This document shows, in pieces, positions 2,985-48,100 of a DNA stretch of 64,000 nucleotides; within the stretch, counting starts at the first letter, position 1; every line of letters begins with the position of its first letter. Position numbers and translations under genes: made by a program. The stretch comes from a virus. Under the pieces are notes generated by a model, which did not search any database, was not told the DNA's origin, and saw nothing but the letters and a program-made list of their open reading frames with translations. The stretch covers positions 21,130-85,129 of IMG/VR virus record IMGVR_UViG_3300035034_000707; one strand, given 5' to 3'.

Positions 2985-5900
2985 TCCAGTAAGCATTGCT
3001 ATCAATATTGCGCTTCAAGCCGCTATCGGTCTGATTATGGCGGTACTCACTCCCAAGATACGGGAAGAGGGGCCACGACTGGACGACCGGCAGGTAACAA
3101 CGTCTACCTATGGCGAAGAGATATCGCTGGGGTATGGCACCGTTCTGGTCGCGGGCAACATTATCTGGGGCAAGGATATCGAAGAGGCTACTCTGGTCGA
3201 AGACATAGGCAAGGGTGGCCTTATGTCTAAAGGCTCGGTGACCAGCTATGAGTACTTCGCCACTTTCGCCCTCGCATTTTCCCGGCGTGAAATCAAGGAC
3301 GTGTTGCGCATCTACGCAGACGGAAAGCTGATCTACGACAAGACGGATGATGATACCCCCCGCGCCGATGTTATGAGTGGTCTGGACTTCACGCTCTACA
3401 AAGGGACCATGACCCAAGAGCGTGACCCCTTGATCGAAGCGGACGTGGGGACGGGTAACTGCCCAGCCTTCCGAGGCATCGCGTACATAGTGTTCAACCG
3501 CCTCCCCCTTCAAAACTTCGGGCGGCGCATTCCCTCTATTCGCGTGGTCATGGCCTTTACAAGTGGCGAATTAGGCCAGCCCTCTTATGCGTTTGAAGAC
3601 CTTTTGCGGGGGCAGACCTTTTCCAGCAACGACTTGGACCCGGTTAGGCGCGTGATGATCAGTCACGCCCGAGATATAGCGTCTGATGATTACCACCACA
3701 TGCTCCATGAGTACGACACGGGGAAGCTACTCTATAAGCGCCGCTTCTCTGATCTGAACGATGATATCGTGGCTATGGGGGGTCCCGCCGGATTTTTCAG
3801 TAATACTGGCGGCAGCGCTCAGTTTTCTGAGGGTCTAAAGGCCGGGGGTGCCTGCCCCTACTATATCTGCAAAAACAGGCAAGGCAGCTCTGCGCGGTTC
3901 GCTCTGATTGAAAAGGATACGCTGCGCGTTATTGATTGGACATCTAGGGCCGCGAACATATTTGACAGGTATGCCAACACCGAAGCCCACCCGACTACCG
4001 GAGTGGACACGGGACACCCCTATGTGGACGGCACCGCCAACTTCGAAATCGTAGAAGTCGTTGGCCTATTCGGTCTCGAATACTTTGCTGTATTTTTGGG
4101 GAGTGGTATCTCCGGAGCCTATGAGGCGGGTGGCCTAGCCATATGCCAAATTACCAGTTCAGGGTTTTCATGGATATGGGGTTCTGGAACGGGGCGAAAC
4201 CAGCTTGGTAGCTTGGTAGCCTCGGGTGCCTACCGAGGCTCTATTGCAGCGGGAACTCAGCGCGGTGAATTCCGGGATATCTATGTGTCTTGCATAGAGG
4301 GGCAGGTTAATTCCGGCCTAGCGCGGGGACCTTACCATATATTCAATATACGTCTGAGCGCAGCGGGGGACTATATCTTGCCGCAAGGTAATAACGCGCC
4401 CCTGAGTGGCTATGCCTTTGAACCGTTCATTACTATCCCAGAACAGACGGAAGCCGGGGGTGGGACTCATCAGCTATGGTTTAACATCAGGACTGGGGTA
4501 CTGGTATGGTCTATCTCGGACGCTGACGAATTTAGAACCCGGGGCTATAATACACTGGCCTTGGTGGGGGACCCGGCTACCCCGGCACAGCTATGGGAAC
4601 GGGATGTCTCTATCTTTTCTCCGGGGTCTACTCAGCACTATCCGTACACCCGCAATCAGATCACCGACTTTGAACGGGCTACCCGCACAATAACGACCTA
4701 TGACATGGACACTGGGGAAACCGTTGATCAGTTCTCTACGAGGTCCGAAGACTACCCTGCGGGGGATGGTATCACGTGGCCTGCTACGGTTGATAACAGC
4801 GTGTATTACTTCCCGGAAGGCAGGCATCAGGTAGACCCCCGCTACGGTGTCTTCTATGCCACCCCTCCTACCACTCGTGGCGCAGAAAGGCTTGACCGGG
4901 TAGTCTTGGACATCGTGACCCGGGGTAGACTGCTAGCCGATGATATAGACGTTACCGGCCTCGAAACTAAAGAGGTGCGGGGCTACCTTATCGCGCGGGG
5001 TATAGACTACCGAACGATCCTTGAGCCACTTATGTCAGGCTATAACTTCTATGGGGTAGAGAAAAACGGCAAGCTGGTATTTGACTTCCATACAAATGTT
5101 CCGGATGTGACTATCCCGGAAGATGATCTTCTACGATCCGGTTATGAAAACGTGCTTGAAGAGGCCCGGGGGCAAGAACTCGAAACACCCCGGGCGCTCT
5201 ATCTGGCGCACCGCGACCCGAACCAAGATGATAACAAAATGGTGCAGGGTGCTCGGCGGACCTCTTTTCCAGATGAAACGATGAACTCTGTGGGGGAACA
5301 GACGGTTGAACTCCCACTCTACCTTACCGTGGAAGAGGGCGCGCGGGTCGTTGAGCGCATTTTGTTTGAGTCTTGGATACAGCGTGAGACGTTGAAATTC
5401 CGCCTGCCCCCGCGCTATCTGGGTATCTTGCCCAATGATATCCTGACTGTTACAGCGGAAGGCCGCACGGAAGCTATTCGGGCAAATAGAGTGAGTATCG
5501 GTTCCAACCTAGAATTGGAAATTGAAGGCAACCTTGTCGAAAACCACATCTATACCCAGAGGGTTCAGGGCGTTCTTGCTTCGGGTTCTCCCAATTTTAT
5601 ACATGGTGGGAACACGGCCAATACTGCCGACAGGGTTACGGGCTGGTTGATGGATATGCCCCTTCTGCGTGACTATGACCTCCCTGACCGCACCCGGGGT
5701 CTGGTCTACTTCTCCGCAGGAGTAGGGGCTACTGACCGGGGGCTATTCCCGGGCGCGGCGCTCTACACCAGCTATGATGGTTCCAGCTTTGACGGCAGGT
5801 CCGCCGCTTCTGTGGGTTCTCCTTGGGGTCTGACGCGGGGACAAGTACCTAACTCCCCCGGGATAGACTGGAACGGGGTTCAGGAGGTTTCCATTGAAGT

Positions 5901-15327: not shown

Positions 15328-15899
15328 AGACGATCACGGCGAAGTACCTGCGCACACAAGAAGCGCTTCACGAGGGGGCCTATGGTTCCTCCGGGCATTA
15401 CTGGCTCGGCCACGTCGCGGAAATCTGTGACGTCCTCAACTGCCGGTCAGTGCTGGACTACGGCGCTGGCAAGGGGACGCTTGGACCCTACCTCAAACGG
15501 CTGGGTATTGAATACGCCGCGTATGATCCGGTGACGTTCCCCAAGAAGCCCTCAGGCCGCTTCGATCTGGTGGTATGCCTAGACGTTATGGAACATATCG
15601 AAGAGGCGTTCGTCCCCGCAGTTATGGCAGAGATATGGGGCTATACCAACATCGCCATGTTCTGCGTTGTGAATACCCGGGCTTCCTCCAAGACCTTGAG
15701 CGACGGGCGGAACGCACATATCACGGAACGCCCCTATGAATGGTGGCGCGATAATTACCTTTCGGAAGGGTGGAAGCCCGCGCGGGTTCGACAGACAGCG
15801 GACGGCTTTGATATGGTATCCACGCGGACCCCACCCCCAACGGGGGTCAGCCCTATCAGCCGGGCGCAGCTACACACTTTGAGAGGGATCAGGAAATGA
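15324..15899 (+). CDS. Class I SAM-dependent methyltransferase
   Basis: VLDYGAGKG, FDLVVCLDVMEHI. Confidence 0.85.
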   Translation: MKTITAKYLRTQEALHEGAYGSSGHYWLGHVAEICDVLNCRSVLDYGAGKGTLGPYLKRLGIEYAAYDPVTFPKKPSGRFDLVVCLDVMEHIEEAFVPAVMAEIWGYTNIAMFCVVNTRASSKTLSDGRNAHITERPYEWWRDNYLSEGWKPARVRQTADGFDMVSTRTPPPTGVSPISRAQLHTLRGIRK

Positions 15900-16708
15900 C
15901 CAGACGGGACACCTATTTTCTAGGTTATGATGCGCGCGAACACGAAGCCGCCTGCATAGCGGGGTACTCAATCCTGCGCCGGGCGAACCGCAGATCGCAG
16001 ATATTCCTGATCGAACATCAGATGCTCCGGGCGCTCAAGAAGTTTGACAGGGAATGGCTCACGACTGCCACAGGGCAGACCTATGACACACTGGATCATA
16101 AGCCCTTCTCTACGGCCTTCTCTCATTCCCGCTTCCTCGCGTTCACGCTGGCTCGTGATCTTAGGTGCACCGGCCCCTGTATGTTTATCGACTGTGACTG
16201 GTTGTTCCTCAATGACCCGGGCGAACTCATGGCACAGCAAGAGAAGAACCCTGACAAGATTGGGGTCGTGTCCCGTCACCGTGAAATCGAAGAAGGCTCG
16301 ACCAAGATGGATGGTATGGTTCAAGAGGCGTATCACCGGAAACTGTGGTCAGCCCTCTTTACCTTCATGCCTACTCAGGAGTGGGCCGCGCTCTTCGACG
16401 TTCAAGCGGTTAACAACCGGACGGGCCGCGCCCTTCACGGCTTCCTTGGATTGGATAAAAATCGCTTCTGGGAAGTGGACCCGCGCTGGCACTATATCCC
16501 CTCGCTGGACCCGGCACAGGAGGCCCCCGGGGGTATTCACTACTCCGAATTCAGCCCTTGGTTAAACCCTGAGCGGTATGCCGAATTCCCGAAAGCCTTT
16601 GACGCATGGACTGATGAGAAATCTGCTTGGCTGGAATACGCGGCCAAGCGCGGCGCTCTGGAAACTTGGGATGATCTGAACACGGCCCTCTTGGCGGCGG
16701 CGGCTTGA
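15896..16708 (+). CDS. GT-A (GT8-like) glycosyltransferase
   Basis: FLGYDARE, STAFSHSRF, FIDCD (DxD), RKLWSA, IHY. Confidence 0.75.
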   Translation: MTRRDTYFLGYDAREHEAACIAGYSILRRANRRSQIFLIEHQMLRALKKFDREWLTTATGQTYDTLDHKPFSTAFSHSRFLAFTLARDLRCTGPCMFIDCDWLFLNDPGELMAQQEKNPDKIGVVSRHREIEEGSTKMDGMVQEAYHRKLWSALFTFMPTQEWAALFDVQAVNNRTGRALHGFLGLDKNRFWEVDPRWHYIPSLDPAQEAPGGIHYSEFSPWLNPERYAEFPKAFDAWTDEKSAWLEYAAKRGALETWDDLNTALLAAAA

Positions 16709-16733
16709 CGAACAAGGTAAACGCCTATATATA
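16705..16733 (+). promoter_or_regulatory. Phage promoter TTGACG-17-TATATA preceding a non-coding element
   Basis: TTGACGAAC overlapping upstream TGA; no ORF before the terminator. Confidence 0.65.
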
Positions 16734-16734
16734 C

Positions 16735-16822
16735 TCACACCTAGCGCTGTTTCTCCAAGGCAGTCGCTTGGTGGTGAAACTGGACGGGCGCAGGTTGTGG
16801 TGAGCTAGCGCCCGTCCTTTTT
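16735..16822 (+). ncRNA. Candidate two-hairpin antisense small RNA
   Basis: Own promoter; hairpin 1 (16735-16777) with loop TCTCCAA; hairpin 2 (16782-16817) enclosing AGGTTGTGGTGAG, then T5; loops complement leader motifs TTGGAGA and CACCACAACC. Confidence 0.7.
16782..16822 (+). terminator. Intrinsic terminator
   Basis: GGACGGGCGC/GCGCCCGTCC perfect 10-bp stem + TTTTT. Confidence 0.8.
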
Positions 16823-16832
16823 AGTTTTGGGG

Positions 16833-16861
16833 TTGACAAACGGTCCTAAAGATTATATACC
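16833..16861 (+). promoter_or_regulatory. Phage promoter TTGACA-17-TATACC
   Basis: GGTTGACAAAC; leader ACCACAACC at 16868. Confidence 0.7.
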
Positions 16862-16891
16862 TTCGGGACCACAACCGAAAGGAAATCCCAA

Positions 16892-17635
16892 ATGCTTGTG
16901 CAGTCTGGCGGCAATAATGTATACGCCGTCCTCGCCAATACTGACGAATTCGAACTGTCGATTACGCCGACGCTGACTATCCAATCCACTACCGTAATCC
17001 TCGCGCTGCGGTGCCGGTTCAAATCCCTTCAAACAGATTACTTTGACCCCATGATGGTCCCCAAGTCTGTTCTGGTGTCGGGTATTGAGCGGTCGAAGAA
17101 TACTCTGCGCGGCACCCTGATGCTGAATACTGGCTTCACCGTGGAAAAGGTTGGCTCCGGCTTCCCAGATATCGTTGCCAAGAAGCTGGTCAGCGAGGTC
17201 TCGGGCATACTCCTGCCCATTTCGGAAGAGCAAGAGAAGGCGGTGCTCTATATCAATCACCTGAGGGACGACTTTGTTACAGACTTTGCGAAGCTGGTTA
17301 CCTCAGTCATTGCTCCGATATCCCCAGCCAAAAACTTCTCAAAGGTGCCCGCCCTCCTGAGCCTCTTCGATATGAATATCTATATGGCAGCGGCGGCGGA
17401 ACACGGCCCAGAGGTGCCCTTCAAGGTGGTCCCGGAACCGGAACCGGCAGGCACCGGGGCCTCAGTAAAGAAACTGGACGTGAGTGGGGATTACGAACCT
17501 GACCCAGAGAAAATACCTGTGGATAACTCTGAAAAGCCGGTTGACAAACCCGCTACAGGTACGGAAGGGTCTAAGGTTCATCTACTCGGACAGGCCCCCG
17601 CCCTCACACCGGCGGAACCTGAAACCACCGACTAG
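16892..17635 (+). CDS. Hypothetical protein
   Basis: 247-aa ORF with GAAAGGA RBS and promoter. Confidence 0.75.
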   Translation: MLVQSGGNNVYAVLANTDEFELSITPTLTIQSTTVILALRCRFKSLQTDYFDPMMVPKSVLVSGIERSKNTLRGTLMLNTGFTVEKVGSGFPDIVAKKLVSEVSGILLPISEEQEKAVLYINHLRDDFVTDFAKLVTSVIAPISPAKNFSKVPALLSLFDMNIYMAAAAEHGPEVPFKVVPEPEPAGTGASVKKLDVSGDYEPDPEKIPVDNSEKPVDKPATGTEGSKVHLLGQAPALTPAEPETTD

Positions 17636-25579: not shown

Positions 25580-26695
25580 GTGCACAAGCTAACTGATGCA
25601 GTGTCCACGATCACCAAAGCATACGGCAAGACCGCAGGGGGACTGGGCTTCCGGTTCCCCTCCTTCGCCAGACTGCCCACAGGTATCTTGACGCTTGACC
25701 TAGCACTTGCTGGGGGAATACCGATGGGGGCCGTGTCCCTCATTTATGGAAATGAAAGTAGTGGGAAGACCTCCCTTGCGCTCCGCCTAGCCGCGCAGTT
25801 TCAGAAGAGGCACGGGAAGGGTAAGAACGCTCGGAAGGTTGTCTGGCTGGACGTGGAAAACGCATGGGATGAGGAGTGGGTACGACTTCACGGGGTTGAC
25901 CCGGATCAAGTCTACCTGTTTCGACCAACCACGGCGGAAGAGGCGGCGGACGTAGCCGACGAAGTGGCGATGGCACAGGACGCGGGCCTGATCATCGTGG
26001 ACTCCATTGCGGCCATGTCCTCTATCGACCAGCTAGAGAAGTCCGCAGAGAAGGTTGTGGTGGCCGGTGCGGCGAAGCCATCGACTACCCTACTGCGCAA
26101 GATAGGCGCGGGCATTACCGAACACGCAAAGGCTGGTCAGACCCTAACCGTCATTTATATCAATCAGCCTCGTATGAAAATCGGGTTTCATATGGGTAAC
26201 CCGGAATTCCTGCCCGGCCCCGTTATGCAGAACTTTCAAGCGTTTTTGAAACTACGCCTGACGGGCAAGGCTATCCTCAAGGAAAAGATATCCCCCATCC
26301 CGATCTACTCAGACAACACGGCTAAGATCGTCAAAAAGAAATTCCCATGTATCAGGCAGTCCTGTGAATGGCAGACGATGCTTTACCCGTGGGAACATGC
26401 CGGGAAGAAACACTGGCCGCTGGAAGTCAACAACCGGACACATGCCGAAGCCCTCTTGGAAGACCTCGACTACCTCAGCAAGAGCGCGACCGTGAAAGGG
26501 AAGTGGGACCTGTTCGACATCGAACACCCAGACGCCGGGGAACTGCTGCAATTCCCGACGAAGACGGCGGCGGTAGACTGGGCCGTGGAACGGTATGATG
26601 CTCTCACTAAATTCCTGATTGACGACCTCCTTCTGCTCTACAAAGACGATATCAAGAAGCAGCTAGAGGAAGCCGAGAAAGCAGGCCACAAGTGA
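25580..26695 (+). CDS. recA: RecA/UvsX-like recombinase
   Basis: PTGILTLDLALAGGIP, GNESSGKT, IIVDSIAAM, YINQ. Confidence 0.92.
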   Translation: MHKLTDAVSTITKAYGKTAGGLGFRFPSFARLPTGILTLDLALAGGIPMGAVSLIYGNESSGKTSLALRLAAQFQKRHGKGKNARKVVWLDVENAWDEEWVRLHGVDPDQVYLFRPTTAEEAADVADEVAMAQDAGLIIVDSIAAMSSIDQLEKSAEKVVVAGAAKPSTTLLRKIGAGITEHAKAGQTLTVIYINQPRMKIGFHMGNPEFLPGPVMQNFQAFLKLRLTGKAILKEKISPIPIYSDNTAKIVKKKFPCIRQSCEWQTMLYPWEHAGKKHWPLEVNNRTHAEALLEDLDYLSKSATVKGKWDLFDIEHPDAGELLQFPTKTAAVDWAVERYDALTKFLIDDLLLLYKDDIKKQLEEAEKAGHK

Positions 26696-39585: not shown

Positions 39586-39618
39586 GTTCTAACACCACAA
39601 CCACTCTTGGAGATAGCA

Positions 39619-41490
39619 ATGTCACAGTATTGGGCCGCAACTACAGGCTTCCCGCACACCGCCCCGCCACCGGATAAAGCCATCTATGGTGGTAAGGGTG
39701 CGGGGCTTATCGAAATGGCGCAGGCACAGTTACCCGTTCCCCGCGCGCTGGTCATTACGACCCTCGCATGGCAGTATTACAAAACCCATAACAAGCTGCC
39801 AGACGAACTCATTGATCGAGTTGCATGGTTCGTCAGTGACGACAAAGACTGCATGTTTAGTGTTCGCTCCGGCGCTCCAGTATCCATGCCGGGGATGATG
39901 GACACGGTTCTGAATGTTGGAGTAACAGTAGAACTGGATGATATGTATCCCGGCGCGTTTCACCGCTTTGCTACATCGTGGCTAGAGATCGTCAAGGGAG
40001 TGCCAAAGGCACGGGTAAAGACCCTCTCCGAAATGATAGAGGCCCGCGCAGACAGCAGCGAACGGCGGTTTTCTCTGATGGCAGGGGTAATCAAAAGCGC
40101 AGAGGGCCTCGACATTCCCTTAGCGCGCACCGAACAGGTGCTGGCCTGCATCGAAGCCGTATTCCGCTCATGGGATACCCCACGCGCTCGGGCTTATCGC
40201 AAGATGCACGATATCCCGGAAGATATGGGCACAGCCTGCGTGGTACAAAAAATGGTAATGGGGACAGCCAAGGGCCTCTCGGGGTCAGGCGTCATGTTTA
40301 CCCGGAACCCGGCCACGGGTGAGAACGAAATGAAAGGTGAGATAGCCTTCAACGCTCAAGGTGAGGAAGTTGTATCAGGTGAAATAACGCCCATGTCCCT
40401 AGACGATCTGGCACATTCCGGCAACCCATATTGGGAAAACCTGCACTCACAGCTAGGCAGTCTCTGCTCCACACTGGAAGCCCATTTCGGGGACGTTCAG
40501 GACATTGAATTCACGGTAGAGGATGGGACCCTCTACGTCCTTCAAACCCGCACGGCTAAGATGTCAGCCCGCGCCCGTATAGAAACGGCGGTGGCCCTTT
40601 GCGCCTCCATGCCCTCCCCCCAGCGCTACAGCTACCTCAAGGCCCGTCTCACGCGCCGCATGGTAGAGCAAACGCGCATCGCGGTAGTCGATACCGACAT
40701 GAAACCGACTATGACCGGTTTGCCCGCAGCCCCGGGCGCTATCTCAGGCAGGATTGTCTTTCGCACGACGCCGATAGCCAAGATTGGTAAGGACTGTATT
40801 TTGGTCGCAGAGGATACATCGCCAGACGATTTCCCTATCATGGCGAAGTGCGGCGGCATCCTAACCAAGACCGGGGGCTTTACCTGCCACTCGGCGGTGG
40901 TCGCTCGGGGCATCGGGGTTCCGGCAGTAGTTGGGGCCGGTGATCTTACGTTCACTAAGCAGGGCTGGGTCACTATAGGTAGCACCCAGATACAAGAGGA
41001 AAGCTATATCACGCTAGATGGGACCTTAGGTCAGGTATTTACTGGAGAACACCCGGTCAAGAAACAGCAGCCCCCACGCTCCATTTATGAGGCGCTTCAC
41101 TATATTGTAAAAAGCAAGGGTATTGAGGTCGCGTCAGAGGTATACTACTACGATTGCGGGATTGGCTACGATGTAGTGCTACCCCTCAACCCAGCCGATC
41201 TGGATCAGGTAGAAACCCAGCTAAAACGCATGGAAAAGATGAAAGAGAAGGGCAAGAATGTCGTCCTCGCCTTCGAAATGCAGGGCATGGGGGAAGACCT
41301 TTTCAGCGATACGGCAGAGACGCTCTTTCAAGGTATCGCAGACAACTTTGCTGGTGACATCGCCGGGACCACTATAGCCTACGGTGTCAGTCACGCTATG
41401 GCTCCTAAAGTCACCGAAATGCTAGGGGTATCGGTCAATCTCAAAAATGAGATAAGCATCCTTGACCTCCTTGACCTGCTAGGGGGTTAA
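39619..41490 (+). CDS. PPDK-like dikinase: ATP-grasp + phospho-His swivel domain, lacking the pyruvate/PEP barrel
   Basis: GGKGAGL, SVRSGAPVSMPGMMDT, GEEVVSG, QDIEFT, LQTR, GGFTCHSAVVARG. Confidence 0.88.
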   Translation: MSQYWAATTGFPHTAPPPDKAIYGGKGAGLIEMAQAQLPVPRALVITTLAWQYYKTHNKLPDELIDRVAWFVSDDKDCMFSVRSGAPVSMPGMMDTVLNVGVTVELDDMYPGAFHRFATSWLEIVKGVPKARVKTLSEMIEARADSSERRFSLMAGVIKSAEGLDIPLARTEQVLACIEAVFRSWDTPRARAYRKMHDIPEDMGTACVVQKMVMGTAKGLSGSGVMFTRNPATGENEMKGEIAFNAQGEEVVSGEITPMSLDDLAHSGNPYWENLHSQLGSLCSTLEAHFGDVQDIEFTVEDGTLYVLQTRTAKMSARARIETAVALCASMPSPQRYSYLKARLTRRMVEQTRIAVVDTDMKPTMTGLPAAPGAISGRIVFRTTPIAKIGKDCILVAEDTSPDDFPIMAKCGGILTKTGGFTCHSAVVARGIGVPAVVGAGDLTFTKQGWVTIGSTQIQEESYITLDGTLGQVFTGEHPVKKQQPPRSIYEALHYIVKSKGIEVASEVYYYDCGIGYDVVLPLNPADLDQVETQLKRMEKMKEKGKNVVLAFEMQGMGEDLFSDTAETLFQGIADNFAGDIAGTTIAYGVSHAMAPKVTEMLGVSVNLKNEISILDLLDLLGG

Positions 41491-41505: not shown

Positions 41506-41778
41506 ATGTTCATAGTAAACGCACAAGAGGGTCAGTCCATTCTGGTTGGGGACCGTATCATCCGCCCGGTGTCCGTGCTACGTCCGGGCGTTGTCTCATT
41601 AGAAATAGAAGGGGAACCCGGAACCATCCTAATTGGATGGGACCGAAAGCTGGCGATATTCCCAGAGGTTCTGGTAACAGTCAGCCGCACGGCGGGCTTT
41701 TCTCAACGGATCAAGTTTCTGTTCGATGCGCCGAAGTCTATCCGCATCCGGGAACTGCCCTATGACCCACCCGAATGA
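41506..41778 (+). CDS. CsrA/RsmA-like protein (extended)
   Basis: MFIVNAQEGQSILVGD and IKFLFDAPKSIRIRE resemble CsrA N- and C-terminal strands. Confidence 0.55.
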   Translation: MFIVNAQEGQSILVGDRIIRPVSVLRPGVVSLEIEGEPGTILIGWDRKLAIFPEVLVTVSRTAGFSQRIKFLFDAPKSIRIRELPYDPPE

Positions 41779-42703: not shown

Positions 42704-42735
42704 GGGAGAACACCATAAGCCCCTTGGAGGATACA

Positions 42736-43689
42736 ATGATTACCCTAGATTATTTCAAGACCCACCCGCTCAGGGTCGCCAAATCGCAGGCTGATGTTAC
42801 TATTGGAAGTCTTCTGACTGCTGAAAAAGCCACTATCCTAGAGCCTGCCATGCACCCGTCTATGGGGGCCTATATCCACTACGGCGGCGTTGAACTGGCG
42901 GATATGCTTACGATCACCAAACCGGACCTTAGCGCTTCGGAAAGAGCAGACTTGGCTAAATACTGGTACGGTTCCTGCGGGGCCGTCACGAAGCAGCTTA
43001 TGTTCTACGTCTGGCGAATTGTTTCCAAGGAACTCCGGCACGGCAATTCAGCCAAATGCCACAAAGCCTTTTCCTCAGGCACCTTCGACCCAGACGCTGT
43101 TGCGTTATGCACCGCGATATCATCCCAGCCCGGGAACTATATGGATCATGTTGCCAAATACCCTCATATAACCGCCCTAGCCTATATTGAAGCAGTCGAA
43201 CAAAACTACCGGCATGGGGGCTGGGCTGGCGCGTTCGGTGGTAAGAAATGGGCCGATATTGCACTTGTCCTACTGTGGTATCTGAAAGGCGATATCAGCG
43301 CAATGTTGGCGGCGGACCGGGCATGGTCCCTCGTGCACAACACCGGTCCGATATTCAATAAAGGGTTCTATTTCACGCTTCATGATGGGAACCTTCAAGC
43401 CCTCCTGAACGCTCAGGCCGCTTCATCAGTTTTCACCATGGCGGATAAGGTTGAAGCCCTCTATTCGCATCAGGTGCTGGACCAGTTCAAGGAATTTAAG
43501 CACCGCGCCCTCGCGGCTATCCAGAAGGTCAAACCTGAGTATCAAGCCGGTGACGGCGGCGGGGTCCATGCGGATGGCTCGAAAGCCTCAGAGGCCTCGG
43601 CTACTACCACGGAAAACGGGGCTAAGATCACAGCCCACCCCTTTGGGGTCTACACGATAAACACCACTAATGAGCGAAAGGAAGCGTAA
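42736..43689 (+). CDS. Hypothetical protein (FGGKKW...D...HNTG..FNK)
   Basis: 317-aa ORF with promoter/RBS; enzyme-like polar motifs. Confidence 0.75.
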   Translation: MITLDYFKTHPLRVAKSQADVTIGSLLTAEKATILEPAMHPSMGAYIHYGGVELADMLTITKPDLSASERADLAKYWYGSCGAVTKQLMFYVWRIVSKELRHGNSAKCHKAFSSGTFDPDAVALCTAISSQPGNYMDHVAKYPHITALAYIEAVEQNYRHGGWAGAFGGKKWADIALVLLWYLKGDISAMLAADRAWSLVHNTGPIFNKGFYFTLHDGNLQALLNAQAASSVFTMADKVEALYSHQVLDQFKEFKHRALAAIQKVKPEYQAGDGGGVHADGSKASEASATTTENGAKITAHPFGVYTINTTNERKEA

Positions 43690-44297: not shown

Positions 44298-44327
44298 GTA
44301 GGTACACCACACCCTTGGAGAACCACA

Positions 44328-45104
44328 ATGGCCGTCAAATTTAAGAACGCACCCGACGCGGGGGAACCCGACACAACCAAGACATTTGCTTTCCTGCAAG
44401 AAAAGGTTCGAACCGCCTTCGGCCTGCCGGATGAAGTTGAAATACACACCAGCCTAACCCGAACCTCGCTGCACTGTAACGGGGTCAGGGTTGACCTGCC
44501 CTTCGGAATTCCCGATATCAAAGGGGGTAATTCACTTCGTATGCACCTAGCGCGCAAGACCCTCGTGCAGTTAACCCACTCTGCTGGTATTGATTATGCG
44601 GCCCTTCCGAAGTATTCGCCAGAGTCAGAGGCGCTAGGCGGTGTCCCTATCCCGGCGCAGTCAGACGACCCAGATACCATGACGGATGATCAATGGGTTG
44701 TTCACGTCGCAAGCCAGCTATTCCCCGGCACGATCCATCTTCATAAAGCTAGCGACCTCTACCAGCCAGTCCTTGGCACGTCTTCTGGTTCCATATACAA
44801 AACATGCTTTATCGGACCACACCTCAAGATCGCGGCCCGGCTCAAAAAGGAGTCTGTCAGCTTCCGAGCCACGACCAACCATAACACCGCGCCAGAAGGG
44901 GACCTAGCTGATATCCTGAAACGGTTGGGGCTAGCGTCCTCGGGCGAAGATCGTATGACCGGACATGCCGCTATGACAGGCCCCTATACCGATGAATATG
45001 CTTTTGAGTATCGGGCATTGTTCGGGGCCTATTACGCCGCGCTCAAGCCTTGGATCACCAGCAATTTTCCGGCTATCGGAAAACTATCAGAGGGGGTCAA
45101 GTGA
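44328..45104 (+). CDS. Hypothetical protein
   Basis: 258-aa ORF, GTGA-coupled to polymerase. Confidence 0.75.
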   Translation: MAVKFKNAPDAGEPDTTKTFAFLQEKVRTAFGLPDEVEIHTSLTRTSLHCNGVRVDLPFGIPDIKGGNSLRMHLARKTLVQLTHSAGIDYAALPKYSPESEALGGVPIPAQSDDPDTMTDDQWVVHVASQLFPGTIHLHKASDLYQPVLGTSSGSIYKTCFIGPHLKIAARLKKESVSFRATTNHNTAPEGDLADILKRLGLASSGEDRMTGHAAMTGPYTDEYAFEYRALFGAYYAALKPWITSNFPAIGKLSEGVK

Positions 45105-48100
45105 GACTTATAGTCTGTGATGGCGACCCCGCCGATGTAAACACCGCCCTCGGACAGCTTAATGCTCCGGGGGCGTCCGTGCTTCTCAACCCCCAATGGC
45201 TGGTCCCGGACCCTACTGAGCCGTTATGGATTGCCTGCGGGGCGTCAGCCGTCAAGATGATACAGGCGGCGGGATGGATACCCAAGAAGGGGGGCGTAGA
45301 GGCCAACCGGGGTAAGCTGTATCAGGGCGTTCACCCAGACGGGTGGACCTCCCCTATCAATGTCGGGGTATCCTACGCGCCCCAGATCATGCACATGGAG
45401 TATGAGAAATTCGTCATGTTCCAAGCAGACATTGGCATCTATCGCCGGTTCGAACAGACTGGCTCCATGGAACCCCAGCTAGGGCACTACACCTATGCTA
45501 CCAGCCTGTCCGGGGTAGTGGCCTACCTCAAGGCGCAATATGCCGTCACGGGCGCTCCTGTTGACCTCTCGCTGGACCTAGAGACTGAGGGGCTGGACCC
45601 CTTTGCCCTCGACAAGCAAATCGTGACCATTCAAGCCTCGGCCAAGGAGGGTATCTCGGACGTGGTTTATACGCTCAACGTGGACAAGGGCGTGGTCTCA
45701 AAGGTGATCGAAGAACTCAACTGGATAGCCGAACAGCCGTGGATCAAACTTATTGGCGCGAACCTCAAGTATGACCTCCTATGGCTTCGGGTGAAATGGA
45801 ACGTCAACCTTGTCGAACGGTTTATCTTCGATACCTGTAACGGGGGCTCACTATGCCAAGAGAACAGACCGAACACCCTAAACCTCCACACGAAAATCTA
45901 TTCCTCAGACCTTGGGGGCTATGATGATGCCTTCGGGCGCAAGTATGGCAAAGGCAAGATGGGGTCAGTCCCAAAGGAGGACCTCCTACCCTACGCGGGG
46001 GGAGACACCGATGCCTGTCTTCGCAACTACCGCCATATCAGGAAGGACCTGCTGGCGGATAACCTTACTCCGAGTGGAAAACCAAGCCGCAACTCGCTGG
46101 CTTCGGTCTATCTGAACATCGTACACCCAACGCTCAAAGCCCTCCATAAAATGGAATACACGGGTGTCTATCTGGACATGGATAAATTCCATGAATTTGG
46201 CGCAGACCTAGAGGGTCGCATGGTGGAAAGCATGGCGCGTGCCGCCTCGGTGTTACCCAAGTCCCTGATCCAAAAGTACGGGGGCCTGAATTCCGCCGGG
46301 GGTGCTCCGCTTTCCAAGGCCAACATGATCGCTGAATTCCTTTTCTCGCCTACTGGCCTAAACCTCAAACCGACCATGACGACTGCGATCACGGGGAAGC
46401 CATCGACCGCAGAACAGCACCTTGCGCAATTCAAGGACCACCCTGACGCTGGGCCAGTGTTGGAACGATATCTTGACTACAAGTCGGTGTCCAAGATGCA
46501 CGGAACCTACTACGAAGGGTTCTTGAAACACGTCAGATCAGACGGGCGCTGGCACCCCAGCTATATCATACACAAGCAGGGGTCCGGGAAGAGCAACGAA
46601 CAGGCAGCGGCGGGCACTGTTTGCGTAACTGCGGATACTCTATTTACGACGAACCGGGGGGTGATACCTTACTCTGACCTCAAGATTGGGGACCGCGTAA
46701 TAACTCACACTGGAGCAGTAAAGCCCATCATGGGTTTGGTAGATAACGGCCACCGACCCATCGTTCGCCTTACTACACAAGCTGGCAATGTGCTTGAGTG
46801 CACGCATAACCATAAGGTAATGACTCTGGATGGCTGGGTGCCAGCCGGGTCCCTTAAACTAGGGGATATAATTGTCATTCTAACTGGGGCGGAAATCTGG
46901 AAGCCCGTTGTAGACTGGCCCTTAGAGGTTTCTTCTTGGGGGCGCGTAAAGTCTCACACAGGGGCTATCCTGACTCCCCAACCCAAAGGTAAATGGGGCC
47001 ACCTAAAAGTTTCGCAATGCAGGGATAAAGCGTGGGTCAGGGGGCCGAATTACAGAGACTTATCTATTCACAGGCTGGTAGCCACCGCGTTTGTTCCAAA
47101 CCCCAAGGGCTTACCAGAAGTAAGACACAGAAATGGTCTGGCATGGGATAACCGACCAGACAACCTTTTGTGGGGAACACCCGCAGACAATCGGGAAGAC
47201 ATGCGAAACCATGGAACGGGGCTTGGAACAAAATCTAACCAAAAACTCACACAAGATGAGGTAGCTACCATTCGTGCGTCTAAAGACACGAGTGTTAATC
47301 TGGCATTAATCTACGGTGTTTCGCGGCGGCTTGTCTCAGGCATCCGCTCAGGGGAGAAAAGGCCGCTGCTTCGACCCCCACCTAGGGTGCAGTTTACAAC
47401 GTCCCCTATTACCGCTTTGGACCTTAGTGAGGCCAAGACCTTTGGAGCAGAAGTTAAGGATGATCACAGCCATGTAACCGGGGGGGTAGTTACACACAAC
47501 ACTGGCCGAGGTAGTGCGACTGCACCCGCGTTTCAATGTGTCACCGGTGACGCAGAGATTATGACACGGAATGGGATTGTTCGGGCCGATAGCATTGTAA
47601 ACCCTCTCATTCCTGACGATAGCCGGAACCCCTTCCGGGCGCATGTTATGGACATAGCCGGGTCTGAGGGGTTTCGTCCTACCAGTAATGTATTCAGGTC
47701 ATGGCGGGCCGGGCTGCTCAAGGTAACAACGCATTGCGGGAATGATCTTACGTGCACTCCCGAACACCCGTTTATGACGAATTGTGGCTGGGTTAAAGCC
47801 AAAGACCTCACGGTAGACCATCACCTATCCGTCCCAAGCAGGGTATCGCGCGCGACTTCTCCGACATGGGCTACTAAAAGGGTTGCGGAACTGCTGGGAT
47901 GTATCGCGGCCTGCGCGTCTATTACGACTTCGGAAGATGTCATTTTCATAGAGGTTCCCAATGAGTATGCAGGTTTCGTTGAGGCTCCCCTACAACTGAT
48001 TATGGGGAAGTGGGTTTACCTAAACCGCACAGAAACCACAACGGTATTCCACTTTAGAATTGAAGACGCGCTATCGCTTGAAGCAAAGGGGTTTATGGTA

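Follow-up and report, generated by a model that had tools for sequence, protein, structure and literature searches.

A predicted small RNA with loops complementary to the leaders of many genes of its own phage

The uncultured phage considered here carries, between its tail, lysis and glycan operon and its replication module, a short unit that may encode a regulatory RNA directed against the phage's own messages. The unit lies at 16705-16822 (+) of a 64,000-nucleotide stretch, referred to below as the window, which corresponds to bases 21130-85129 of the 85,129-bp IMG/VR virus record IMGVR_UViG_3300035034_000707 (estimated to be 97 % complete). Leaders sharing two short motifs, one at the transcript start and one around the ribosome-binding site, recur in this genome, and genes with such leaders are called tagged in the following. 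That the unit is a conserved RNA element is well supported by the sequence comparisons. We estimate at about 0.55 the probability that it encodes a trans-acting, base-pairing anti-leader small RNA of approximately 84 nt, which would block initiation on all tagged phage mRNAs. One small RNA would then probably turn down the whole tagged gene set, and a role as regulon-wide regulator is plausible. Its transcription and timing, the pairing in vivo and an effect that represses instead of activating are inferred. Positions are those of the window, except where G000, the whole 85-kb genome of the same phage, or a relative is named.

Anatomy and conservation of the unit

The unit begins with a predicted sigma-70-type promoter on the + strand (-35 TTGACG at 16705-16710, a 17-nt spacer and -10 TATATA at 16728-16733), which we presume from its sequence to be active; the TGA stop codon of the upstream glycosyltransferase-like gene falls within the -35 element. 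The small RNA itself is predicted to span about 84 nt, 16739-16822 (+), its start being placed by the promoter geometry and its end by the U-tract. Hairpin 1 (16739-16772, +) presents the loop CUCCA inside UUUCUCCAAGG and is shut at its top by weak U-A and U-G pairs only. The word UUUCUCCAAGG (seed 1, 16750-16760, +) is the complement of the ribosome-binding context of the leaders, CCUUGGAGAAA. A second G/U-rich word, GGUGGUGA in the linker (16770-16777, +), is complementary to the leader start (U)CACCACC and occurs in all four homologues described below. Hairpin 2 (16782-16817, +) consists of a 10-bp G+C-rich stem (16782-16791/16808-16817) and the 16-nt loop AGGUUGUGGUGAGCUA, in which seed 2, AGGUUGUGGUGAG (16792-16804, +), is complementary to the motif at transcript starts, (CU)CACCACAACCU. 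The U-tract UUUUU (16818-16822, +) follows directly 3' of it. An original prediction, made from the letters of the stretch, had placed a promoter, two hairpins and a terminator at 16705-16822, and all of its coordinates and motifs proved correct by sequence and fold. The + strand of approximately 16739-16822 folds with a minimum free energy of -46 kcal/mol (z = -4.5), and none of 200 shuffled sequences folded as well.

Hairpin 2 is predicted to terminate both the small RNA and the operon upstream of it. The G+C-rich stem with an immediate U-tract that is expected of an intrinsic terminator is present in the window (10-bp stem, UUUUU) and weaker in the relatives. The loop is not the unconstrained loop of 3-8 nt that is also expected: it has 16 nt, and its core is invariant in three phages. 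A simple consensus scan called neither the promoter nor the terminator; its rules accepted only T as the final -10 base and only loops of 3-8 nt. The unit is also new with respect to Rfam, as the original prediction had proposed to check: at gathering thresholds the whole window matched no family, including AbcR1, GcvB, SorX and the phage antisense RNAs, and up to an E value of 10 only noise was obtained, the best being tpke11 with 16.2 bits (threshold 43) and SorX with 13.5 bits (threshold 46.6).

The original prediction had further described the unit as free of open reading frames. The only frames present are two of 32 codons each, both unconserved. Across the four homologues the two conserved words are separated by 42, 43, 38 and 33 nt, distances that maintain no reading frame, and coding potential was rejected on this ground. 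A second exact copy of AGGTTGTGGTG is found at 26052-26062 (+) within a coding region, where it encodes K-V-V-V (about 0.02 such 11-mers are expected). Neither a hairpin nor a promoter is found near this copy, and it looks coincidental.

Three syntenic relatives hold the unit between the glycosyltransferase-like gene and the gene of a 247-aa protein. The locus L255 was reached via a DnaB search of IMG/VR (67 % identity) and L314, carried by the complete 87-kb relative G002, via alignment of the 247-aa protein, the flanking protein being only 30 % identical; both were thus located through flanking proteins and without bias towards the loops. The third, L311, lies on a 3.4-kb metagenome contig that came from a loop-pattern scan (45 matches, of which this was the one true homologue), its synteny being verified afterwards. 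Although 22 further homologues of the 247-aa protein were found, the comparison of loops and leaders covers four phages. A promoter of the form TTGAC(A/G)-17-TATATA/CTATAT/TTTATA is present in all four complete homologues, with a spacer that is not conserved in sequence, and in three of the four phages its -35 element includes the stop codon of the gene upstream. In the three closer copies every loop core column is identical (9 of 9 for seed 1 and 11 of 11 for seed 2), as compared to 7 of 21 and 11 of 20 stem columns. In the fourth phage each loop differs by one base, seed 1 there reading CUUCUCCAAAGG.

The variation of the stems is compensated. In the RNAalifold structure 95 % of the cells are paired, compared to 39-51 % with slid partners, and 7 of 28 pairs are changed on both sides compared to 0-3 when slid; none of 500 shuffles reached any of these measures. 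Three such pairs belong to hairpin 1, the stem sequence of which varies among the homologues, and four of the ten outer stem pairs of hairpin 2 are changed on both sides with none broken. By prediction the conserved words are largely open, the probability of being unpaired being 0.43-0.86 (mean 0.53-0.66 for seed 1) compared to 0.27-0.35 for the whole RNA; the exception is a word of G002 described below. Conserved accessible seeds on variable, compensating stems, a mark of the small RNA class, are therefore what is seen here. The + strand folds better than its complement by 8-20 kcal/mol in all four homologues because of 5-10 G-U pairs, and both the promoter and the U-tract are oriented on the + strand.

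A covariance model (R1) built on the three close copies finds one copy per genome and misses the copy in G002, in which the three-word architecture is rearranged. Four DNA runs, with patchy contig cover, contributed one partial, diverged fifth copy from a salt lake, which aligns only at 16750-16778 (loop 1) and once more within the gene downstream, the surrounding sequence being different. The unit region gave no blastn match in 50,697 phage records. The exact 16-mer of loop 2 had 14 matches in IMG/VR, all unrelated, and loose two-motif patterns gave there, among the matches listed, only chance hits apart from the known relatives. No relative was found in viral contigs with the 247-aa protein alone as query; bacterial and archaeal genome contigs held none by protein, and their 46 pattern matches had neither promoter nor family context.

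The tagged leaders and their fit to the RNA

Promoters of the form GGTTGACNAAC-14-TAGGNT, i.e. GGTTGAC(A/G/T)AAC-14-TAGGNT, number about 27 in the genome, which also has a stereotyped leader consisting of ACACCACAACC, 5-7 nt, C(C)TTGGAGA (CUUGGAGA), 4-9 nt and ATG. Both motifs are found in 14 leaders of the whole 85-kb genome, five of them in the window, and these five hold the motifs in the order that had been claimed for them, with the complements in the RNA in antiparallel order. Two of the 14 leaders are not at a transcription start, one of them being intercistronic at G000 4706. As the motif pair is found away from transcription starts, it travels with the ribosome-binding site and is thus a feature of the RNA level. 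The word CTTGGAGA has 9 copies compared to 2.0 expected, a number reached in none of 100 shuffles, and CACCACAACC with at most one mismatch has 12 compared to 4.4 expected. The complements of both leader words occur together only at the small RNA unit; by hand arithmetic, the chance of a 10-mer and an 8-mer complement within one 84-nt stretch of 2 x 85 kb is about 2e-4.

All target sites cited in the original prediction exist. Leaders with both motifs precede a kinase/PPDK-like gene (39593-39621, +) and are found at 55847-55882 (+). The operon that extends to the genes for DNA polymerase, portal and head is headed by the leader at 44305-44330 (+), with a 10-nt match, CCTTGGAGAA, at position 44313. 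The best match to seed 2, the 11-nt CACCACAACCT at 63904, is in the leader at 63904-63934 (+), together with CTTGGAGA. The 5' motif is degenerate in the leaders at 42711-42738 (+; CACCATAAGCC, with CCTTGGAGG matching seed 1) and 53618-53647 (+; seed 1 match CCTTGGAG). The leader CACCACACATTGGAGA at 60480-60504 (+) is farther from its promoter, and the ribosome-binding region CCTTGGAGA at 55615-55632 (-) belongs to the sole minus-strand gene with a family promoter. Outside the window, at 4706-4743 in G000 coordinates (locus L322), a leader-like TTCACCACAAACCTTGGAGACAATTATG stands straight after a TAA stop codon with no promoter upstream.

Many small genes within the first 8 kb of the genome are tagged, as are the operon of DNA polymerase, portal and head genes and the leaders behind the two promoters (G000 11461 and 11980) ahead of the long late operon. 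The tagged genes are thus not simply early. Early shut-off, one of the roles initially suggested for the RNA, is not indicated, since the operon of DNA polymerase, portal and head genes and that of tail, lysis and glycan genes are likewise preceded by leaders with both motifs, and nothing was found that points to lysogeny or immunity, the other two roles suggested.

The two words are placed in the antiparallel order needed for simultaneous pairing with one leader, and unconstrained duplex prediction pairs both. Seed 1 binds the phage's own leaders with a mean predicted energy of -12.4 kcal/mol compared to -5.7 kcal/mol for shuffled seeds (z = -5.1, 0 of 200), and seed 2 with -16.3 compared to -10.5 kcal/mol (z = -3.7, 0 of 200), including exact matches of 9-11 nt at leader starts. 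The fit of the linker word GGUGGUGA is weaker (z = -2.3). Duplex energies are -13 to -20 kcal/mol, from which roughly -6 to -14 kcal/mol per seed remains net of an opening cost of about 4-5 kcal/mol for the small RNA loops and 0.2-4 kcal/mol for most leaders; the highest leader cost, 5.9 kcal/mol, is that of the loop-1 site of the G000 6894 leader. A further mark of the small RNA class is thus found here, namely complementarity beyond chance to several mRNAs that are unlinked, in or close to their ribosome-binding sites.

Loop 1 could have been a generic anti-Shine-Dalgarno sequence, as the original prediction conceded. It is more than that, because the match reaches into phage-specific bases flanking GGAG which cannot pair with the standard 16S tail. 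These flanks also vary from phage to phage. In G000 and G001, the loops of which have G (...CCAAG...), 16 of 18 leaders have C before UUGGAG. In G002, U stands at this position in 11 of 17 leaders and C in 2, and the loop has A (...CCAAAG...); the leaders of this phage read UUUGGAGA in place of CUUGGAGA, and loop 1 is altered to match. The shift between G000/G001 and G002 is significant (Fisher p = 5e-6), and seed 1 of G002 fits its own leaders with z = -4.5. The single leader-like site of G003, which is away from a promoter, reads A before UUGGAG. A second and weaker hint of co-variation is provided by the base after CACCACAACC, which is mostly U in G000 (loop A) and C in two G001 leaders (L255 loop G). 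This comparison assumes that G001 and G003, two contigs of one metagenome, are the same phage. The expectation that the loops would be conserved and vary together with the leaders was thus borne out: they are invariant in three phages, and loop 1 has changed with the leaders in the fourth. Loop 2, which had been proposed as the specific test, gave a divided answer, with a good fit in three phages and, in the most distant one, a fit no better than that of shuffled sequences. In G002 the 5' motif of the leaders is degenerate, and only the last-hairpin loop GGGUGGUG fits modestly (z = -2.3).

A proposed anti-leader RNA and the alternatives

The anti-leader RNA that we favour would work as follows. 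It would be transcribed from its own host-type promoter, which adjoins the stop codon ending a long operon's last gene, and would end at hairpin 2, a terminator shared with the tail, lysis and glycan operon, so that the same sequence would also be the 3' untranslated region (UTR) of that operon. Three G/U- or C/U-rich words, open or weakly paired, i.e. UUUCUCCAAGG in loop 1, GGUGGUGA in the linker and AGGUUGUGGUGAG in loop 2, would pair antiparallel with the leaders of 14 genes or operons of the 85-kb genome. Loop 1 would lie on the Shine-Dalgarno GGAG and its phage-specific flanks and would block 30S binding. Loop 2, with the linker GGUGGUG, would lie on the C/A-rich 5' end, adding affinity and removing what is likely a translation-enhancing, unstructured leader. 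Accumulation of the RNA would result in coordinate down-regulation of all genes bearing the module.

Several results weigh against this reading. The complete homologues number just four, one of which was located by its loops, and no RNA run is among the sequencing runs listed for this phage. Only in the window does the U-tract stand right after hairpin 2; it is shifted in L311 and L314, L255 lacks one, and a discrete 3' end in the relatives is uncertain. In G002 the word GGUUGUAGUGA is predicted to be paired (probability of being unpaired 0.14) and fits the leaders of its own genome no better than shuffled words do (z = -0.6), fitting the G000 leaders better; its conservation in G002 is left unexplained by this model. 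Full-length duplexes show a modest gap (-26.5 for leaders compared to -23.3 for random G+C-rich windows, standard deviation 4.6), and seed-limited energies were adopted since the full-length ones separate the leaders poorly. The co-variation in trans is essentially one evolutionary event. The 16S tail used for comparison was the standard one, and that of the actual host may differ, as may its chaperones. The conserved flanks of GGAG could also serve a leader-binding protein instead.

The source of the RNA allows for a different view. From the promoter at G000 11980 to the small RNA some 26 kb of tail, lysis and glycan genes contain no family promoter, and the late region is therefore probably one very long transcript ending at the small RNA's terminator, which makes the anti-leader sequence also the 3' UTR of that operon. 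Part of the RNA may derive from there. If the active species were this 3' UTR alone, intact or processed, with the promoter contributing little, the loops would act from the end of the long mRNA, in trans or 5'-3' within the same mRNA. No terminator separates hairpin 2 from the upstream stop codon, the overlap of this stop codon with the -35 element in three of four phages fits such an origin, and the long transcript's own canonical leader, behind the G000 11980 promoter, has the 10-nt match CCTTGGAGAA. A near-consensus -10 element is nevertheless kept exactly 17 nt from TTGAC in all four phages while the spacer varies, which is hard to explain without promoter function, and we regard this account as rather unlikely; the two sources of the RNA are in any case not exclusive. 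It is also unlikely, and more clearly so, that the unit is a cis-acting insulator. Seed 2 has a possible cis partner in the leader ACCACAACC (16868-16876, +) of the 247-aa gene (ATG at 16892), 65-75 nt away, and if loop 2 paired with it in read-through RNA, the first gene of the replication module would go untranslated unless transcribed from its own promoter. The downstream leader begins with ACCACAACC in the window and in L255 and with TCACCACAACC in L311, and the weak or missing U-tract of three relatives makes read-through plausible. Loop 1, however, finds no partner downstream, where the ribosome-binding sites are AAAGGAA (window) and CAAAGGAAC (L255), the downstream leader of G002 lacks the 5' motif, and a dedicated promoter is left unexplained.

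Pairing with the leaders might instead protect or activate, either as a nuclease shield or by displacing a repressor protein from the GGA ribosome-binding site. Seed 2 covers mRNA nucleotides +3 to +13, where pairing can stabilise transcripts, and a 90-aa phage protein with a sub-threshold match to CsrA, described below, could bind the leaders. The assignment of this protein is weak, however, and seed 1 pairs over 8-12 nt that include GGAG itself, an arrangement which blocks initiation in AbcR1 (PMC4152367) and in P1 c4 (PMC12197685); an activating role therefore appears distinctly improbable. The same weak CsrA-like gene could suggest that the unit is a protein-binding RNA, or a minus-strand mimic of the leaders, displaying GGA in a loop as CsrB/RsmZ-type sponges do, and the minus strand indeed reads CACCACAACC...CUUGGAGAAA, both leader motifs in leader order. 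We consider this very improbable. Instead of several loop-exposed GGA, the + strand RNA has a single, paired one, its loops holding the complement; on the minus strand the 5-10 G-U pairs become A-C and the fold is worse in all four phages, as given above, there is no conserved promoter or U-tract, and the motifs are 33-43 nt apart, compared to 5-7 nt in real leaders. The minus-strand decoy as such was rejected on its fold energy and its lack of a promoter. Equally doubtful is a reading of the unit as an ordinary terminator with an upstream hairpin, in which the complementarity would be fortuitous or the words would be DNA sites of a transcription factor. It would account for the position exactly at an operon boundary, and CACCACAACC at transcription starts could serve a DNA-binding factor. 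Such a reading does not sit well with loop bases that are invariant while the stems drift, with the low joint chance of both mirror motifs calculated above, or with motif pairs away from promoters, and the second word is the mirror of a ribosome-binding site, a kind of sequence without a role at the DNA level.

The anti-leader RNA and its dual origin can be joined in a wider reading, which is tentative. The promoter-plus-leader cassette would tag many transcription units with a private post-transcriptional operator, and the RNA, coming from its own promoter and from the late-operon tail, would read the tag with two or three seeds, giving a genome-wide, dosage-dependent late shut-down. As a side effect, incoming mRNAs of a superinfecting relative with the same tag would be silenced.

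The 90-aa protein mentioned above is encoded at 41506-41778 (+) and is all-beta, with counterparts in the related phages at 55-70 % identity; its Pfam CsrA score is 19.4 bits compared to a cut-off of 27. It has no sequence match in the PDB, and its AF2 model (pLDDT 84.6) has no Foldseek match in the PDB at E <= 1e-3. If this protein binds GGA ribosome-binding sites, the same UUGGAGA leaders could be its targets.

Comparison with known systems, and the surroundings of the locus

By analogy of mechanism, AbcR1 and GcvB appear to be the closest systems. AbcR1 is an RNA of Agrobacterium, Sinorhizobium and Brucella with two single-stranded anti-Shine-Dalgarno modules, one of them in a hairpin loop (PMC4152367). 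As proposed for the phage RNA, it combines two modules in one RNA, many mRNAs bound at their translation initiation regions and a terminator hairpin at the end. It is a host RNA acting on loosely similar host ABC-transporter mRNAs, whereas here a viral RNA would act on the virus's own genes, which share a near-identical promoter-plus-leader cassette, and the two RNAs have no similarity in sequence or in Rfam. GcvB silences C/A-rich, ACA-containing translation enhancers in many mRNAs with a G/U-rich seed (PMC3879156). Loop 2 GGUUGUGGUG facing ACACCACAACC likewise is a G/U-rich seed on a C/A-rich stretch upstream of the Shine-Dalgarno sequence. GcvB, however, uses a single linear seed on host targets, whereas in the phage a second seed covers the Shine-Dalgarno sequence and the C/A-rich word is at the very 5' end of the transcripts, and there is no Rfam match.

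Among phage-encoded RNAs, the CI RNA of satellite P4 is cut from the leader of the operon it controls and acts at the seqA/seqC sites. The c4 RNA of P1/P7 is processed from the leader of the operon controlled and acts at one locus, the ant mRNA (PMC12197685). Both are like the present candidate in that they are phage-encoded and pair with a ribosome-binding region through short, separated, loop-exposed segments. Their defining feature, processing from the leader of the regulated operon with targets on the same transcript, is not found here; the candidate has its own promoter, about 14 targets over 85 kb and no evident immunity context. In T4, the proteins RegA and RegB recognise and shut down many ribosome-binding regions of their own phage, RegB by cutting at GGAG. 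There the recogniser is a protein, and here it would be an RNA.

Almost all explanations of temporal control in phages invoke proteins, i.e. sigma factors, antiterminators, repressors, RegA and RegB. The phage small RNAs covered by a 2025 review are directed at a single neighbouring gene or at genes of the host, and none of them targets a leader common to many genes of its own phage (PMC12197685). If the anti-leader reading is true, it would represent a new regulatory architecture, an RNA counterpart of T4 RegA/RegB, would explain why near-identical leaders precede unrelated genes in some phages, and would provide a compact, orthogonal leader-plus-RNA switch for synthetic biology. As both pairing partners are short and stereotyped, the proposal is easily tested.

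The record derives from lake and salt-lake metagenomes. By DnaB, the nearest cultured phages are Stenotrophomonas siphophages, with only about 35 % identity. Almost all genes of the phage are on the + strand. The glycosyltransferase-like gene upstream of the unit (15896-16708, +) is the last of the long operon for tail, lysis and glycan modification. Downstream follows the replication module, consisting of the 247-aa protein of unknown function, a helix-turn-helix (HTH) protein, DnaB and primase. The next family promoter (TTGACA at 16833-16838 and TATACC at 16856-16861, +) marks the boundary of the unit, and the same arrangement of promoter and leader 3' of the unit is seen in L255, L311 and L314.

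Some further features of this phage group were observed. At L254 11057-11135 (+) a family promoter is followed by a hairpin in the 5'-UTR (ATAGCG...CGCTAT, GCTTTT) ahead of an AAAGGA ribosome-binding site, and the hairpin loop has no complementarity to the leaders. Two relatives carry suppressor-type tRNA genes (L254 10178-10252, +; L316 10560-10634, -), with the anticodon UUA, which reads UAA, in one and CUA, which reads UAG, in the other; neither the window nor the first 20 kb of this genome yielded any. These tRNAs may hint at stop-codon recoding or read-through in the phage group. In the 1445-aa DNA polymerase (45050-49387, +), residues ~614-928 match an HNH endonuclease and intein-like 'terminase/head' PHROGs, which suggests an intein or a homing-endonuclease insertion. 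The minor head protein (51836-53449, +) has a C-terminal ADP-ribosyltransferase (Alt-like) domain and may be an injected enzyme that modifies the host.

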